The translations under genes and the position numbers were made by a program. From NCBI GenBank assembly GCA_930990555.1, contig CAKNPW010000001.1:35007-99006 (forward strand): a stretch of DNA of 64,000 bases. Direction: 5' to 3'. The stretch is from an uncultured Clostridium sp. (GTDB lineage Bacteria; Bacillota; Clostridia; TANB77; CAG-508). The notes beneath the pieces are model-generated. The model ran no database searches. It was not told the origin of the DNA and saw only the letters and a list, made by a program, of their open reading frames with translations. How positions within the stretch are numbered: the stretch's first letter is position 1; each line of letters begins with the position of its first letter. Below are positions 16,663 through 23,345 of this stretch, piece after piece.

Positions 16663-17424
16663 ATGAAAATTTCTAACTCACCACCTAAAGAAATTGCTGT
16701 ATCTAAGAATGGTTTTAAAGTTTATTCCCGGTATGGAATTAAGCTCGATAAACATGTTACATTAGATATGGTAAAAGAAGTTATTGAAGGCTCATATTTG
16801 TATCAGGATATGGAGCGAATCTCTTCACTCATCCCATATGAACTTTCTGGCAAAGGACATAAGAGAAGACTAATAGTAGCTCTTATAAAATATAAAGATT
16901 CCTACGAAGTTTCAAAAGCTTTCTGGAAACGGAATCTCAAATTTATAGGGCATACCAATAATTTATACCCTGTATATTTCTCAAGGGATTTCTACTGCAA
17001 TATTGATCTTTCTTTTTTAAGAAAAGTTGTTAGGCAGGTAAATTTGGAATCAAAAATTGAAAAATGTCAGGTAAAATCAAAATCAGTTATTGGTTATGTT
17101 GACTTTGCCCCTTTGTCGTTTTACCAAGACATAGATGACCTTATGAAGGTCATTCGCCATGGCGAAAAGCATCCAGTTTATATGGCATTTTCTTCACCAC
17201 AAGAAATCCGTTGTCTTTCTATAGACTTTGAAAGAAAGTCAGATGTAAATGGCATATTTTATATTATTACTAATATAAGATTTACCGGATTAGAGACTAT
17301 GCCACGCCCTTGGGAATTAGATCCTGGAGATGACTTGTATTTACCAGCAATGAAGTTTTGGCAAAAACATGCATATTGTTTTATGCCTAAAAAAATTCGA
17401 AAGAATATAACTATAACTTCTTAA
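16663..17424 (+). CDS. Hypothetical protein, GC-elevated, opposite strand to its neighbours
   Basis: 253-aa ORF with visibly higher GC than its flanks, followed by a strong bidirectional terminator. No recognised motif. Confidence 0.5.
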   Translation: MKISNSPPKEIAVSKNGFKVYSRYGIKLDKHVTLDMVKEVIEGSYLYQDMERISSLIPYELSGKGHKRRLIVALIKYKDSYEVSKAFWKRNLKFIGHTNNLYPVYFSRDFYCNIDLSFLRKVVRQVNLESKIEKCQVKSKSVIGYVDFAPLSFYQDIDDLMKVIRHGEKHPVYMAFSSPQEIRCLSIDFERKSDVNGIFYIITNIRFTGLETMPRPWELDPGDDLYLPAMKFWQKHAYCFMPKKIRKNITITS

Positions 17425-17442
17425 ATTTTTCAAACCAAACGA

Positions 17443-17481
17443 TAATAAGCGTACTGATTTTAATAATCAGTACGCTTATTA
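17443..17481. terminator. Bidirectional intrinsic terminator between convergent genes
   Basis: Perfect 15-bp stem ATAAGCGTACTGATT/AATCAGTACGCTTAT, T-rich on both sides. Confidence 0.7.
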
Positions 17482-17487
17482 TTGTTT

Positions 17488-18549
17488 TTACCTTTCTTCT
17501 TCACTTTTAATTTGAGTTTTATAATGTACATATCTTCCATATATATTATTTAGTTGTTCATATTCTTCTTGTGGGGCATTTCTTTTTTGCATTAACTTTA
17601 ATATTTCTTGATAATCAGATATAAAAGATGTTTCTCCACTACCTATTACATATTCATAATTTGAAGCAAATCTTTCACTTTGTATAATATCTAAAATTTC
17701 TGGCATTGTTTTTCCTTCTGTTGGTATTTTTTTAGGAGGAATAGCCGAATTTTTACTTCTAATATATAAGCTTATTCTTTCTGGATCCATACCTTCTAAA
17801 CATTCGGTAACAGCTAAATAAGATTCATCATGTCTATGTAAATCTGTTAATTTAGTATCTCCTTTACCATTATATACAAATATTGCAGTTTCATATCTTT
17901 GATGTATAGCTAGAGCACTTACTAAATCCCCGACAGCCATAACATGTAAATCTAATTGGTAACCATGTTCTTCTAATTCTTTTTCATCTACTCCTATTAA
18001 ACCTTGTTGTAATGAAGGTGCCACTTCTATTAAAATATTATATCCTTTTTCCATTGCATAGTTTCTAATATTAGCAGCATGATCATATGAATCTATTCCT
18101 GTTAAAGCCCCAAAATGCGTTCTGTCTTTTTCTCTAATTTCGTCTGCATCAGATCTATACTTTTTATATAAATCTGGATTTATAACAACATATACTTGAT
18201 TTTGTGGATTTATTAATTCTCTTAAACTAGTTTTTCCCGCACCTGTTTGAGATACTAATACAGCTGCAATCGGATTTTTTGAAGGTTCTTGCCTTGCAGA
18301 AAATGTAATAGTCATAGCTTTAAACAAAGTCAACAAATATTCTTTGTCTGTTTGTCTTGTTTCTAGCATTTGTTTCGCTAACGAATTACTAATATTGTCT
18401 GATATGTAAGGATTCACCCTTCTTTTAGCAAATTTTAATATTTCTTGTGGTGTATCTGGTAATTCATTTATAAAGTCTGGATTTAATTCGTGTAATAATT
18501 CATTTAATGTTTCTTCTGAAATCTCTCTTGTTTCATTATAGTCAATCAT
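17488..18549 (-). CDS. Zeta-toxin-like P-loop kinase (copy 2)
   Basis: 353 aa, Walker A VSQTGAGKTS, shared RHDESY motif with its paralog. Preceded by a translationally coupled small helical protein. Confidence 0.5.
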   Translation of the reverse strand: MIDYNETREISEETLNELLHELNPDFINELPDTPQEILKFAKRRVNPYISDNISNSLAKQMLETRQTDKEYLLTLFKAMTITFSARQEPSKNPIAAVLVSQTGAGKTSLRELINPQNQVYVVINPDLYKKYRSDADEIREKDRTHFGALTGIDSYDHAANIRNYAMEKGYNILIEVAPSLQQGLIGVDEKELEEHGYQLDLHVMAVGDLVSALAIHQRYETAIFVYNGKGDTKLTDLHRHDESYLAVTECLEGMDPERISLYIRSKNSAIPPKKIPTEGKTMPEILDIIQSERFASNYEYVIGSGETSFISDYQEILKLMQKRNAPQEEYEQLNNIYGRYVHYKTQIKSEEER

Positions 18550-18758
18550 ATTATTTCTTTCTTCTTTCCTTTTAATACTCTTTTTATAATATTTGAATTA
18601 CCTTTACAAATTTCAACTTTAATTTTTTGTAATACTTCTATTTTTTGCTTTAGTAATTTATTAGCTTTTTGACTCTTATTTACTGCATACTCATTCATAA
18701 CTGTTGCCAGTTCATTTTCTATAATTTCTATAGCAAGCTCTATATATTCTTCCCTCAT
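18546..18758 (-). CDS. Small helical protein, putative epsilon-like antitoxin (copy 2)
   Basis: 70 aa. Overlaps both neighbours by 4 nt (ATGA). Confidence 0.4.
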   Translation of the reverse strand: MREEYIELAIEIIENELATVMNEYAVNKSQKANKLLKQKIEVLQKIKVEICKGNSNIIKRVLKGKKKEII

Positions 18759-19759
18759 TGAATGCTCCTCCTATAAATTTCCTTAAGTTGCTCAAATTGT
18801 TCCTTTGGTGCCTTTCTAGCTTCCATTTGTTTATATACTAATTCATATCTTTCTTTAAATTCTTTTTTTGTATTGTCATTATCTTCATCTCTAACAACTT
18901 TAAGGGTCTCTATTATATCACAAAATCTCTCAGAAGGAAATACTTGTGTTGGATTATATTCATTTGCCAAATTTCCACGTATATATACATTAATACTACT
19001 TATTCTTTTATCATTCATTATTTCTTCAACGTTTGGTATTAATGCTTCATATGATTCATCATGTCTTCCTACAGATGTTAATTTAGCAGTTTTTAATCCA
19101 TGTATTATTTGTAGCTCATATCTTTCATGTACTGATAATAAGCTATTTAACTTACCAACAGCTAAGATATAAACAGAAATTTTATAATTATTTTTTACAA
19201 GTTCTTCTGCATCAACTCCTAATAATCCTTTGTTTTGGGATGGAGCTGATTCTTTTATAATATTATATTTATTTGCTATTGCATATTCGTATATATTATC
19301 CGCATGGTCATACGCATCTGGTCCAGTTAAAAATGGATATAATACTTGATACTCATTTGCAATATCTTTTGCATCATACCTAAAGTGTTTATATTTATCT
19401 GAATCAACAAAAATATAATTTTCGTCTTCTCTTAAAAGTTTTGCAGTTAAATTGCTTTTTCCACTACCTGTTTGTGCTGCAACTATTTTTATTTGAGGAT
19501 TTTCTACTCTCTTTTTATTATAAAAAGTAATTGCCATAACAAAGAAAAAGGTTCTTAAATATTCTTCATCACTTAATAATTTTTCTTTCATTAATTTTTT
19601 GGTAGGTTCATCTACATTTTTAGAAAATTGAACTTCTTTAATTCTAGTTGCATATTTTAATAAATTTTCTGGTTTATCTGGCAACATTTCTATTATTTGG
19701 TTAGGTATTTGCTTTATTATTTTATCGTATACTTCTTTTAAAATTTCTCTTCTTTCCAT
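18755..19759 (-). CDS. Zeta-toxin-like P-loop kinase (copy 1)
   Basis: 334 aa, Walker A AAQTGSGKSN; paralog of 17488-18549. Confidence 0.5.
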   Translation of the reverse strand: MERREILKEVYDKIIKQIPNQIIEMLPDKPENLLKYATRIKEVQFSKNVDEPTKKLMKEKLLSDEEYLRTFFFVMAITFYNKKRVENPQIKIVAAQTGSGKSNLTAKLLREDENYIFVDSDKYKHFRYDAKDIANEYQVLYPFLTGPDAYDHADNIYEYAIANKYNIIKESAPSQNKGLLGVDAEELVKNNYKISVYILAVGKLNSLLSVHERYELQIIHGLKTAKLTSVGRHDESYEALIPNVEEIMNDKRISSINVYIRGNLANEYNPTQVFPSERFCDIIETLKVVRDEDNDNTKKEFKERYELVYKQMEARKAPKEQFEQLKEIYRRSIQ

Positions 19760-19760
19760 A

Positions 19761-19943
19761 TTAAAACTCCTTATTTAATATCTTTTTGACACTTTCTCTA
19801 TTTCCTTTATATGCACTTTCTTGAAGTGCTATTAACTTATTAAGTTTTATTTCGTCTTCTTTAGTTTTTAAATTAAACATAGCATTTGCAATTTCTGCCA
19901 TTATTATCTCTAACGAAACTTCTAGTTCTACATGTTCTTGCAT
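19761..19943 (-). CDS. Small helical protein, putative epsilon-like antitoxin (copy 1)
   Basis: 60 aa. Its stop is 1 nt from the start of the kinase gene. Confidence 0.4.
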   Translation of the reverse strand: MQEHVELEVSLEIIMAEIANAMFNLKTKEDEIKLNKLIALQESAYKGNRESVKKILNKEF

Positions 19944-19999
19944 TTTACAGCCTCCTTTTTATATACTTTACTATTTAAAATAGAATTTTCAATTGACAT

Positions 20000-20888: not shown

Positions 20889-23345
20889 TTAAAAACCTAT
20901 CCTTCTTGCTTCATTTTTTGCTGTTAATTTTTCTGCATCTATATCATCTTCTGTTATAATCATTAAATTATCGTCATCATCAATATTTTCTACATTTCTA
21001 GAATGTTCAATTAAAATATCTTGATATATTTGATTTATATATCTTGCATTTCCAAAATCTTCAACTTTTTTTGATGTTTCAATTATACTTTCTACTTTTT
21101 TTAGTGCTTCATTTGTAATTTTTAAGTTGTTTTTCTCTACTAATTGTTTAAAAATATCTATTAATTCTTGACTTGTATAATCATCAAACTTTATCGTATA
21201 TCCTATTCTAGATTTTAATCCAGGATTATATTTGATAAATTTTTCCATCTGCTTTTCATATCCTGCGAATATAACTATTAAATTATCTTTTTGATCTTCT
21301 AATACTTTCAATATTGTTGTCATACAATCACTTGCAAAAGAAGCATTAGAACCACTATCTACAATAGAATATGCTTCATCAATAAATAATACTCCACCAA
21401 AAGCTGATTTCAATACATTATATGTCTTACCTGCTGTTTGTCCAACATATTCTGCAATAAGATCTTTTGCTGATACTTCTACAAGTTTATTTTTCTTAGT
21501 GTAACCTAAATTATACAGGATATCACTAAAAAGCCTTGCCACAGTTGTTTTACCTGTACCTGGATTTCCTGTGAATACCATATGAAGATTAAATTTAGAA
21601 ATATCAATATTTGCTCGTTTATTAAATTTTAATAAACTTACTAAATTATTAATTTGTTTTTTTATTTTGCCAAGACCAATCATTTCATTTAATTCTGATA
21701 AAATTTGAGGTAAATCTCTTGTATTATATAGATTAGGTATATCTTCTAACTCTAAAGTTCTATTCTTATTCTCATCAAATGTACTATTTTCATTTAATAT
21801 TATCTTATTAAATAACACTTTAGCATATTCTGTATTTTTAAGTTCACTACTTCCATAGCTTAATTTTATATAATTATATATCTTCTCTTTTATTTCAGCA
21901 GTTAATTGCTCTGTTAAGCTTAATCTTTCTATAACTATATTATAAACCTCATCTATATCTAATTCATCTATGTTTAATTCTATATTAAATAGATTCTCTG
22001 ATAAAATCGGATGTTTATCTAATATGCCTTTTATTACCTCTTTATTTCCATAAATCATTGTTACTATTCTAGAATTATTTTTTAATATTTTTTCTGCTAG
22101 TAAATTTAAAATAATATTTTGATCTTTATCTGATGCATAAATTATATTTTGAAAATCCATAATCCTTATTATTCCATATTTGTATGTAGTTTTTCCAGTA
22201 CTATAATCAACATACATTTTATTTATTAAATTTTTGTCAGATATTATCTCGTTCATTGAATATTCATAATATTTTGTACTTTCTTTTAAATATACAAAAT
22301 ACCACATATATTCACCAATTAACTCTGAAATATTTGTAGCCATCTCCCTATCTTCTGTATACATTACAATATTAATAGGAACAAAAGGTGTCGCTGTTGT
22401 ATAATTATAATTTAAAACATAATTAAATAATCTTTTTATCTTATTTTTAGTTTCTTTATTACAAGATAACTTTTCCACTTTATTTAAATATATTCTGTTA
22501 AAATACTTCCCTCTATTTGTTATCTTATCTTTATTTCTTCTTGACAAATATCTTTCTAGTTGTTTTATAACATCTACTTTTTTTACTTCAATTAGATATG
22601 TATAATATGCAGCCAATTTATATACATATTCATAACTTTGGTCTGTATTATCATCTATATTTTTTTCGAATTCTTCTATATCAAATGCTAGCTCATTATC
22701 ATAATTTCCTAAATAATATTCATGTATTTTATTTATATAATATGTGCTATTTTCCAAATTAATTATGTTTAATACATTAAATTTAGCTTGTTTAGTTACT
22801 TCATTGTATTCTTTTAATTTGATAAATTCATTTTTTAATAATATTTCAACAAACATTAAAGTTACTGTGTCTATTTTATCAAATTTTATATCTATTGAAT
22901 TATATAAAATTGGAGTTTTACCCTCATTTAAAAATATATTTAACAACTTCTTTGCATCTATTACAACTTTGTCTCTTTTTTGTGCACTTAATATTTCATA
23001 CAAAAAATTTCTTACTAAGTATTTTATACAATATTGTAGCCCACATTTTTCACATTTTAGTTTCTTTTCTCCTATTTTGTCTATAAATACATTTCTTGCA
23101 ATGTTTAAATTTATTCTATAGTTACAATTCATTAGAAATTCCAAATAATTATAATCTGATGGAATACAGCTTTTAATAATTGCATATTTTATTTGATTAT
23201 TATTTGCTTCTGCTTCTGTCTGTTGATACATTTCTACTAAATTGAATTTTAAATACATTAACATGATCTTTAAAGTAGGTTTGTCTATGTTTTTATATAA
23301 CTCAAATTCTTTACTATTTGCCAATTTTTCTAAATATTCGTCCAT
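20889..23345 (-). CDS. AAA+ ATPase of the CbbX/SpoVK/EccA-like clade with a ~570-aa unknown N-terminal domain
   Basis: 818 aa. C-terminal FTGNPGTGKTTVARL Walker A, DEAY Walker B, GNAR motif. N-terminus contains CEKCGLQYC. No TM segments. Confidence 0.7.
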   Translation of the reverse strand: MDEYLEKLANSKEFELYKNIDKPTLKIMLMYLKFNLVEMYQQTEAEANNNQIKYAIIKSCIPSDYNYLEFLMNCNYRINLNIARNVFIDKIGEKKLKCEKCGLQYCIKYLVRNFLYEILSAQKRDKVVIDAKKLLNIFLNEGKTPILYNSIDIKFDKIDTVTLMFVEILLKNEFIKLKEYNEVTKQAKFNVLNIINLENSTYYINKIHEYYLGNYDNELAFDIEEFEKNIDDNTDQSYEYVYKLAAYYTYLIEVKKVDVIKQLERYLSRRNKDKITNRGKYFNRIYLNKVEKLSCNKETKNKIKRLFNYVLNYNYTTATPFVPINIVMYTEDREMATNISELIGEYMWYFVYLKESTKYYEYSMNEIISDKNLINKMYVDYSTGKTTYKYGIIRIMDFQNIIYASDKDQNIILNLLAEKILKNNSRIVTMIYGNKEVIKGILDKHPILSENLFNIELNIDELDIDEVYNIVIERLSLTEQLTAEIKEKIYNYIKLSYGSSELKNTEYAKVLFNKIILNENSTFDENKNRTLELEDIPNLYNTRDLPQILSELNEMIGLGKIKKQINNLVSLLKFNKRANIDISKFNLHMVFTGNPGTGKTTVARLFSDILYNLGYTKKNKLVEVSAKDLIAEYVGQTAGKTYNVLKSAFGGVLFIDEAYSIVDSGSNASFASDCMTTILKVLEDQKDNLIVIFAGYEKQMEKFIKYNPGLKSRIGYTIKFDDYTSQELIDIFKQLVEKNNLKITNEALKKVESIIETSKKVEDFGNARYINQIYQDILIEHSRNVENIDDDDNLMIITEDDIDAEKLTAKNEARRIGF

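Follow-up and report, generated by a model that had tools for sequence, protein, structure and literature searches.

A conserved tandem pair of zeta/PezT-family kinase genes, each with a small upstream partner gene, in an uncultured gut Clostridium

The known systems closest to the locus analysed here are epsilon/zeta of plasmid pSM19035 (Streptococcus pyogenes) and PezAT (S. pneumoniae), two type II toxin–antitoxin (TA) systems; epsilon antitoxins obstruct the ATP site with residues from the N-terminal end of their first helix (PMC5923241). Most proteins with a Zeta_toxin domain have no known partner or substrate, and a 2023 survey of PezT/Zeta homologues listed many without a known antitoxin, together with the non-canonical systems EzeT, ng_epsilon1/ng_zeta1 and PezAT-Mtb (PMC10532202). 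The DNA under study (the window) is a stretch of 64,000 nucleotides (nt) from an uncultured Clostridium sp. (GenBank assembly GCA_930990555.1, contig CAKNPW010000001.1, positions 35,007 to 99,006 of the forward strand); at window positions 17488–19943, on the minus strand, it carries the genes s1-K1-s2-K2, which form one operon with coupled junctions and a common terminator. A preliminary description, made from the sequence letters, had proposed two tandem epsilon/zeta-like TA modules at this place. Here, two diverged zeta/PezT-family kinases were found, each preceded by a small protein, both small proteins being of one family not named before; in the preferred reading, drawn by analogy and held with about even confidence, a non-canonical zeta-type module became doubled long ago and is now fixed in the chromosome, and its small proteins restrain the kinases. 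Database pipelines already label these kinases 'zeta toxin family protein'; literature searches returned no description of this kinase clade, of the partner family or of the conserved tandem pair.

Gene order, sizes and the single orientation were exactly as first described: s1 (19761..19943, 60 amino acids (aa), an open reading frame (ORF) with its own ribosome-binding site and the small partner of K1), K1 (18755..19759, 334 aa, a zeta/PezT-family kinase), s2 (18546..18758, 70 aa, the small partner of K2) and K2 (17488..18549, 353 aa, a zeta/PezT-family kinase and paralogue of K1), all on the minus strand. The overlapping or abutting start and stop codons of that description were also present, with 1 nt between the s1 stop and the K1 start (TAAtATG) and a 4-nt ATGA overlap at each of the K1/s2 and s2/K2 junctions. 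GGAG-type ribosome-binding sites are strong for s1, K1 and s2, and the K2 site is weaker and purine-rich. The operon ends after K2 in a bidirectional hairpin terminator (17437–17487; 23-nt arms, 96% complementary, 5-nt loop), which terminates a convergent ORF of 253 aa as well. Motifs common to both modules show up as residual DNA similarity that recurs every ~1.22 kb.

In the profile comparison, both kinases lay far above the cut-off (22.3 bits) of Pfam Zeta_toxin (PF06414), with expectation values (E) on the order of 1e-24 (K1, E 6e-24, 85 bits; K2, E 1e-23, 84.2 bits), and the domain was present in all of at least 120 kinase homologues among the matches listed. NCBIfam returned a PezT match only, below threshold, and the best PDB sequence matches of K1 and K2 were zeta and PezT (2p5t_B), with E 9.5e-12 for K1 against zeta 1gvn_B. 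A kinase structure was predicted with AlphaFold for P0069, a ~60%-identical K1 homologue with a fused s2 domain, which stands in for the window protein; stand-alone s2 rows, which MAFFT had placed inside the kinase region, were excluded from its folding alignment. The model (mean predicted local distance difference test (pLDDT) 93.9, predicted template modelling score (pTM) 0.84) was compared with known structures using Foldseek and matched zeta 3q8x_B (E 4.4e-13, target template modelling score 0.79), zeta 1gvn_B (E ~4e-13) and the PezT chains of 2p5t (E 7.5e-11 to 1.4e-9), followed by unrelated kinases, first an unnamed one (E 3.4e-4) and then adenylate kinases, with ng_zeta1 at E 8e-3. Pfam, PDB and Foldseek all point to zeta/PezT, and on these sequence and model matches K1 and K2 are assigned to the zeta/PezT P-loop kinase family and not to the housekeeping nucleotide or sugar kinases, which the preliminary description had named as the alternative.

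K1 and K2 align over their full length at 36% identity (E 9e-65); K2 is acidic (isoelectric point (pI) 5.1) and the faster-evolving paralogue, and the ratio of nonsynonymous to synonymous substitution rates (dN/dS) of K1 is 0.10–0.17. A Walker A motif lies in each near the place first indicated (K1 Q96–S102, K2 S100–T107), and the RHDESY segment is likewise in both (K1 232–237, K2 239–244). The N-terminal extension, given as ~90 aa, had to be shortened: with the Walker A lysines aligned (K101 of K1 and K106 of K2 against K46 of zeta and K45 of PezT), it measures ~55–60 aa. In the P0069 model it is predicted to form a beta-alpha-alpha-alpha-beta-alpha subdomain, and the C-terminal part of K1 is a helical hairpin. 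A role of the extension as a cis-acting antitoxin of the EzeT type was considered and rejected, because the extension is modelled as an alpha/beta subdomain, not a helical bundle, and the small-protein hidden Markov model (HMM) matches no kinase ORF.

The AlphaFold model of s1 has three helices (residues 2–23, 28–45 and 49–56; pLDDT 96.3), and the s2 domain has three helices in the P0069 fusion model. s1 and s2 are 30% identical (E 0.004) and fall clearly into one family once homologues are added; its common pattern is a helix, a variable linker, a helix, the motif Y-x-G-N and a short helix. The N-terminal helix is the most conserved part of the small protein, and in s1 the first 19 residues (MQEHVELEVSLEIIMAxIA) are nearly invariant even where K1 is only ~58% identical. 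s2 is basic (pI 9.4), and its K-rich tail, which is conserved, terminates in GIL/EII. Comparison with relatives gave dN/dS of 0.08–0.16 for s1 and 0.24–0.41 for s2, that is, purifying selection on both. A set of 5.8 billion proteins held 92 homologues of s1 and 5 of s2, none named and none with a Pfam domain, and a profile search of 1.84 billion representatives gave 73 clusters (50% identity), nearly all of stand-alone proteins of 56–75 aa. Among ORFs of at least 35 aa in a total of ~0.5 Mb, the window included, the family HMM matches solely the small ORFs upstream of the kinases. The preliminary description had allowed that the small ORFs might lack homologues or coding signal; with conserved homologues and dN/dS of 0.08–0.41 in hand, s1 and s2 are taken, from sequence and predicted structure, to be real genes of one narrow, previously unannotated three-helix family.

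The same description's idea that the small proteins are epsilon-like or PezA-like was not borne out in Pfam, in PDB searches or by Foldseek. Pfam searches of s1 and s2 at E<=1 returned noise and no Epsilon_antitox or helix-turn-helix (HTH) match; Epsilon_antitox (PF08998) and HTH_3 were matched by none of 35 family members; Pfam showed no DNA-binding domain in s1, s2 or the family; and NCBIfam gave nothing linking the small proteins to epsilon or PezA. The family profile found neither the antitoxin chains of 1gvn and 2p5t nor any other sequence in the PDB, and in Foldseek the s1 model reached no better than E 1.4, with epsilon and PezA absent from the top 50 listed. Homology to epsilon/PezA was therefore rejected, Pfam, NCBIfam, the profile search and the Foldseek comparison of the AlphaFold model all being negative.

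Pairing of small and large protein is strict. A small-family ORF of 60–75 aa lies on the same strand directly 5' of every related kinase, in 46 of 46 examinable loci and in the window; one further fetched locus begins inside K1 and falls outside the 46. Distance matrices of 18 tandem loci correlated best within cognate pairs (K1-s1, r = 0.91; K2-s2, r = 0.93) and less well across them (K1-s2, r = 0.88; K2-s1, r = 0.83), and the charges of s2 (+4.5) and K2 (-16.6) are complementary. In three homologues (P0018, P0069 and P0075, with two different junctions) an s2-type domain is fused to the C-terminus of a K1-type kinase, giving the layout s1-[K1-s2]-K2; the P0069 fusion folds as a single confident unit (pTM 0.84) in which the last K1 helix continues into helix 1 of s2. 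N-terminal s-K fusions were absent among the 92 s1 homologues and the 73 representative clusters. Because of strict adjacency, translational coupling, co-variation and natural fusions, s1 and s2 are regarded as the obligate cognate partners of K1 and K2; the earlier claim of a cognate small partner for each kinase thus stands, with the addition that the partner is conserved, co-evolving and directly upstream. By sequence and model, the fusions further argue for K1 and s2 belonging to the same complex, which would then probably contain s1 and K2 as well. On one contig with a K1-s2 fusion (L046, 2097–3160, plus strand), K2 is split into ORFs of 71 and 268 aa, which is either a pseudogene or an assembly error.

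Relatives of the module were found only in metagenome-assembled genomes of uncultured low-G+C gut Clostridia, the closest (93–95% identical) being labelled Clostridium sp. CAG:354 and UMGS1570. A species-level scan gave 19 distinct genome loci with the tandem s1-K1-s2-K2. In a neighbour-joining tree of the kinases, rooted on zeta and PezT, K1 and K2 form separate clades with matching internal branching, and single-module subfamilies lie nearer to K1 than K2 does; K2 and s2 evolve ~1.4 times faster than K1 and s1. Because the K1 and K2 subtrees mirror each other, the doubling is judged to be old and both copies to have been inherited together, vertically through speciation. The preliminary remark that doubled kinases with small partners are unusual is thereby upheld and extended, the arrangement being evolutionarily stable as well (19 tandem loci, mirrored trees). 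The unit is also dynamic: its chromosomal neighbours differ between species, s2-K2 was lost in one lineage (L020, L029, L030), and in an 80%-identical relative (L001/L016, 4661–5754, minus strand) a third module is inserted in inverted orientation between s1 and K1, consisting of a 67-aa member of the small family and a 292-aa Zeta_toxin protein (E 4.9e-31) whose loop, E-G-T-L-N-S, is nearer to the canonical GTxR. In this relative the insertion places s1 ~1.4 kb from K1, with s1 still intact.

A mobile-element origin found no support: searches of phage genomes and viral contigs gave no relatives, the only plasmid-borne matches were canonical zeta toxins with ~25% identity, the ~10 kb around the operon held no tRNA or tmRNA gene, no integrase was found near it, and G+C content is uniform (26–30%), without a compositional anomaly at the locus. 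Assignment to a known defence system was rejected, since PADLOC at E<=1 gave no match for s1, K1, s2, K2 or the neighbouring 253-aa ORF and PHROGs gave one weak family of unknown function only.

For the residue map, zeta and PezT were added to an alignment of 114 family members, and residue roles were taken from the published analysis of the enzyme (PMC3062530). The catalytic set is intact. The Walker A motif (K1, Q96–S102, QTGSGKS, 19454..19474, minus strand; K2, S100–T107, SQTGAGKT, 18229..18252, minus strand) carries the lysine equivalent to zeta K46 in 114/114 sequences (K101 in K1, K106 in K2); the catalytic base, zeta D67, is Asp in 114/114 (D121, D126); zeta E116 of the catalytic core is Glu in 113/114, with one exchange to Asp (E170, E175); of the two lid arginines, zeta R158 is Arg in 114/114 (R213, R218) and zeta R171 is Lys in 114/114 (K226, K233), a conservative change. 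Residues invariant within the family itself include K124, R127, D129, T145, Y150, R232-H233 of RHDESY, and R261. Because of zeta family membership, fold and the intact catalytic set, K1 and K2 are almost certainly active phosphotransferases, as judged from sequence and model.

The acceptor side has been rewritten. The loop that in zeta (E116-G-T-x-R120) contacts the phosphates of UDP-N-acetylglucosamine (UDP-GlcNAc, UNAG) reads E170-S-A-P-S174 in K1 (19238..19252, minus strand) and E175-V-A-P-S179 in K2 (18013..18027, minus strand). The equivalent of zeta T118, which contacts the UNAG beta-phosphate, is Ala in 114/114; that of R120, which contacts the UDP phosphates, is Ser in 104/114; that of T121, near UNAG, is variable; that of T128, at the uracil, is Asp or Asn; and that of E100, at the ribose 2'-OH, is Asp or Glu in 93/114, being Ala in K2 and still acidic in K1-type sequences. 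In PezT, the exchange T118V abolished toxicity (PMC3062530). With the GTxR loop changed to x-A-P-S, activity on UDP-GlcNAc is not simply transferable to K1 and K2: by these alignments their substrate is uncertain, UDP-GlcNAc 3'-kinase activity cannot be assumed, and they are not demonstrated members of the UNAG-kinase subgroup, the UNAG-contact residues having been tested and not matched. The suggestion of cell-wall precursor phosphorylation in the preliminary description can consequently not be adopted as it stands, the equivalents of T118, R120, T121 and T128 being replaced in all or nearly all of the 114 members.

The s1 leader (19951..19992, minus strand) contains a weak sigma-70-like promoter candidate (TTGAAA-16-TAAAGT), the ribosome-binding site GGAGG (19951–19955) and, between the -35-like and -10-like hexamers 5' of s1, a perfect palindrome, CTATTTTAAATAG, at 19971–19983 (minus strand). 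When upstream regions were compared, neither promoter candidate nor palindrome was kept in other species, the palindrome being absent even from relatives 94–95% identical in K1, and because of this absence the palindrome is probably a chance feature of AT-rich sequence. A conserved operator or promoter for the module was likewise rejected, since the upstream regions compared across species have no palindrome or promoter in common. No counterpart was seen of the autoregulation of type II TA systems by a DNA-binding antitoxin and its operator. In several species s1 starts 10–25 nt past the preceding chromosomal gene, and in six loci (L019, L022, L023, L025, L027, L041) the product of that gene ends in ...IPTNEELVIARDTKNLI, which may be the C-terminus of an acetate kinase; this would suggest read-through transcription from a gene of central metabolism.

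In the window, genes for a flavin reductase, for a GIY-YIG protein and for an AAA+ protein of the SpoVK/CbbX type lie upstream of the operon, and those for Nfo (endonuclease IV) and an RsmF-like methyltransferase downstream; SmpB and a peroxiredoxin are further neighbours. The AAA+ gene (20889–23345, minus strand) encodes 818 aa with a SpoVK/CbbX/EccA-like ATPase domain at the C-terminus (residues ~540–806) and no family match in the N-terminal ~540 aa; it is followed by the GIY-YIG protein and the flavin reductase in the same orientation, an order that is syntenic in close relatives. The convergent 253-aa ORF (16663–17424, plus strand) matches nothing in Pfam, NCBIfam, PHROGs, PADLOC or the PDB. 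Only the window and its three closest relatives (L012–L014) have the ORF at this site; it is absent in L015, L001 and L017, and because of this distribution it is judged, by sequence comparison, to be a lineage-specific insertion between K2 and nfo. A functional link of the module to endonuclease IV was rejected: the window gene is a true Nfo, the AP_endonuc_2 gene that follows K2 in the L004 lineage codes for another protein, which has no name, and the neighbours are different again in other species. Distant single modules adjoin genes such as carB/prfA or pheST. In one ~41%-identical single-module subfamily (L010, L035–L039), a metallo-beta-lactamase (MBL)-fold hydrolase gene always lies 3' of small gene and kinase, and all other neighbours vary; in L010 (6942–7751, plus strand) it lies 12 nt downstream, and its product matches Lactamase_B and Anti-Pycsar_Apyc1 in Pfam and bears a weak resemblance to RNase Z. 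Small gene, kinase and hydrolase may form a three-gene unit there, which would hint at a nucleotide-type substrate or at an enzyme that reverses the product.

For the preferred reading, a doubled zeta-type module under restraint, a mechanism can be proposed that is modelled on epsilon/zeta and PezAT. Each small protein would bind its own kinase and keep it inactive, most likely by way of the invariant acidic N-terminal helix, placed at the nucleotide site, and the four proteins may assemble as K1-s1:s2-K2, a heteromeric counterpart of the zeta-epsilon2-zeta tetramer. The phospho-acceptor would probably be a nucleotide-sugar or nucleotide-like metabolite; it would not be UDP-GlcNAc, or UDP-GlcNAc would be bound differently, because the GTxR phosphate-contact loop has become x-A-P-S. 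Release of a kinase would be expected to deplete or corrupt the acceptor metabolite and so arrest growth. The partner has antitoxin-like traits, being small, all-helical and encoded upstream, with the first helix most conserved. Several observations weigh against this reading. Neither in sequence nor in fold does the partner detectably resemble epsilon, PezA or another known antitoxin (Pfam, PDB profile, Foldseek), and no PADLOC model matched. Several traits are atypical for TA systems and would suit a domesticated function equally, namely strictly vertical co-inheritance, invariant catalytic residues, a start 10–25 nt past the stop codon of the chromosomal gene next to it, the lack of a conserved promoter or operator, and the lack of close relatives on plasmids, phages or viral contigs.

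These observations lead to the alternative that survives best, which we consider possible, if somewhat unlikely: a domesticated, non-toxic kinase complex, in which K1 and K2 would serve this Clostridia lineage as metabolite kinases with a housekeeping or regulatory role and an acceptor such as a nucleotide or nucleotide-sugar, s1 and s2 would be not antitoxins but subunits that support or regulate them (as adaptors, activators or specificity factors), and no addiction or suicide function would be left. The mirrored K1 and K2 phylogenies across 18–19 tandem loci, which indicate vertical inheritance, speak for it, as do catalytic residues invariant in 114 sequences with dN/dS as low as in core genes, the changed UNAG-contact loop, the position of s1 10–25 nt after a chromosomal gene in many species without a promoter or operator of its own, the lack of phage or viral relatives and of a defence model, with plasmid zetas only ~25% identical, and the setting of distant single modules beside carB/prfA or pheST and of one subfamily always with the MBL-fold hydrolase. 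However, a small upstream partner and a kinase in strict pairing and translational coupling are the layout of a type II TA system, the chromosomal neighbours of the unit change between species, and the gain of a third, inverted module in one lineage and the loss of s2-K2 in another are dynamics typical of TA systems. Moreover, every zeta-family relative that the review names as studied by experiment is a toxin (PMC10532202), and AvrRxo1 is a type III effector.

Elements of both readings are combined in a further proposal, which is tentative and in our judgement unlikely to hold in full: K1-s1:s2-K2 would be an obligate hetero-complex, a pseudo-symmetric descendant of zeta-epsilon2-zeta in which kinase and small subunit have each split into specialised paralogues, domesticated by gut Clostridia as a regulated kinase pair that acts, by way of the x-A-P-S loop, on a substrate other than UDP-GlcNAc. 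If it were true, a TA system would have turned into a stable, vertically inherited regulator of metabolism or envelope with a new family of small-protein regulators.

A canonical duplicated epsilon/zeta addiction system, with UDP-GlcNAc 3'-kinases that poison peptidoglycan synthesis and with s1 and s2 as diverged epsilon antitoxins, is improbable. It would account for family membership and fold, for the conserved catalytic Asp and Walker A motif, for three-helix partners encoded upstream and for the acidic E100 equivalent of K1-type sequences, but not for T118 as Ala in 114/114, R120 as Ser in 104/114, a variable T121 and T128 as Asp or Asn, when T118V is reported to abolish the toxicity of PezT (PMC3062530), nor for partners in which neither sequence profile nor fold showed similarity to Epsilon_antitox or PezA, nor for a module that is not plasmid-borne. 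More generally, the addiction function that the preliminary description named as possible is not supported, the module behaving unlike a mobile addiction cassette, with phage and viral relatives missing, plasmid zetas of only ~25% identity, no matching defence model, no conserved operator and vertical co-inheritance. An abortive-infection module, in which phage infection would remove labile small partners and the freed kinases kill or arrest the cell, is equally doubtful: the TA-like layout, the relocation of the unit between chromosomal sites, the third module accreted in L001 and the general link of TA systems to phage defence (PMC10532202) would fit it, but PADLOC gave no match, the window neighbours (Nfo, RsmF-like methyltransferase, SmpB, peroxiredoxin) are ordinary and not recognisable defence genes, no integrase, tRNA or tmRNA is nearby, and inheritance is vertical and not patchy among the sampled loci.

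Whichever reading applies, the locus adds a new and well-delimited partner family (73 clusters at 50% identity, directly upstream of a kinase, first helix almost invariant) and a zeta clade with frozen catalytic machinery and a rewritten acceptor loop, a clean test case for substrate diversification. It is also a rare case of two TA-like modules kept together through speciation and joined by natural fusions, and allows a direct test of whether TA modules can become heteromeric complexes of benefit to the host. As the hosts (CAG-354-type Clostridia) are gut commensals that are common but uncultured, heterologous work will be needed.

Among described systems, ng_epsilon1/ng_zeta1 (Neisseria gonorrhoeae) and PezAT-Mtb (Rv0366c-Rv0367c) resemble the locus in that the partner of the zeta kinase is no relative of epsilon or PezA. 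PezT-Mtb, for which no substrate is known, has kept the P-loop and the catalytic Asp but not the residues that bind UNAG (PMC10532202), and K1 and K2 are like it in both respects. Differences are that ng_zeta1 has a permuted two-domain architecture and is a distant fold match to the K1-homologue model (E 8e-3), that the partner PezA-Mtb has a ribbon-helix-helix fold, and that neither system has been described as a conserved tandem pair. AvrRxo1 of Xanthomonas, a zeta-like kinase that phosphorylates NAD, sets a precedent for a nucleotide acceptor (PMC5491322); it is a secreted type III effector, unlike the proteins encoded here, and it was not among the top structural matches of the K1-homologue model. 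EzeT of E. coli, a zeta toxin whose own polypeptide includes an antitoxin domain acting in cis, has a parallel in the relatives P0018, P0069 and P0075, in which a partner is likewise fused to the kinase; in EzeT, however, the antitoxin domain lies on the N-terminal side of the toxin to which it belongs, whereas here the s2-type domain stands at the C-terminus of K1 and corresponds to the partner encoded upstream of the other kinase, K2.

With epsilon/zeta and PezAT the locus has in common the kinase family and fold (PF06414), the Walker A motif, the catalytic Asp, E116 and R158, and a small helical partner encoded directly upstream and translationally coupled, and the zeta-epsilon2-zeta tetramer makes a complex of four chains plausible by analogy. 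In contrast to these systems, the partner has 60–75 aa (epsilon, 90 aa), no detectable homology to epsilon or PezA and no HTH domain; there is no omega-type regulator or conserved operator; x-A-P-S stands in place of the GTxR UNAG-phosphate loop, and Lys in place of R171; K1 and K2 have an extra N-terminal subdomain of ~60 aa; and the module, carried on the chromosome and passed on vertically, is permanently doubled, its two paralogous pairs having diverged.

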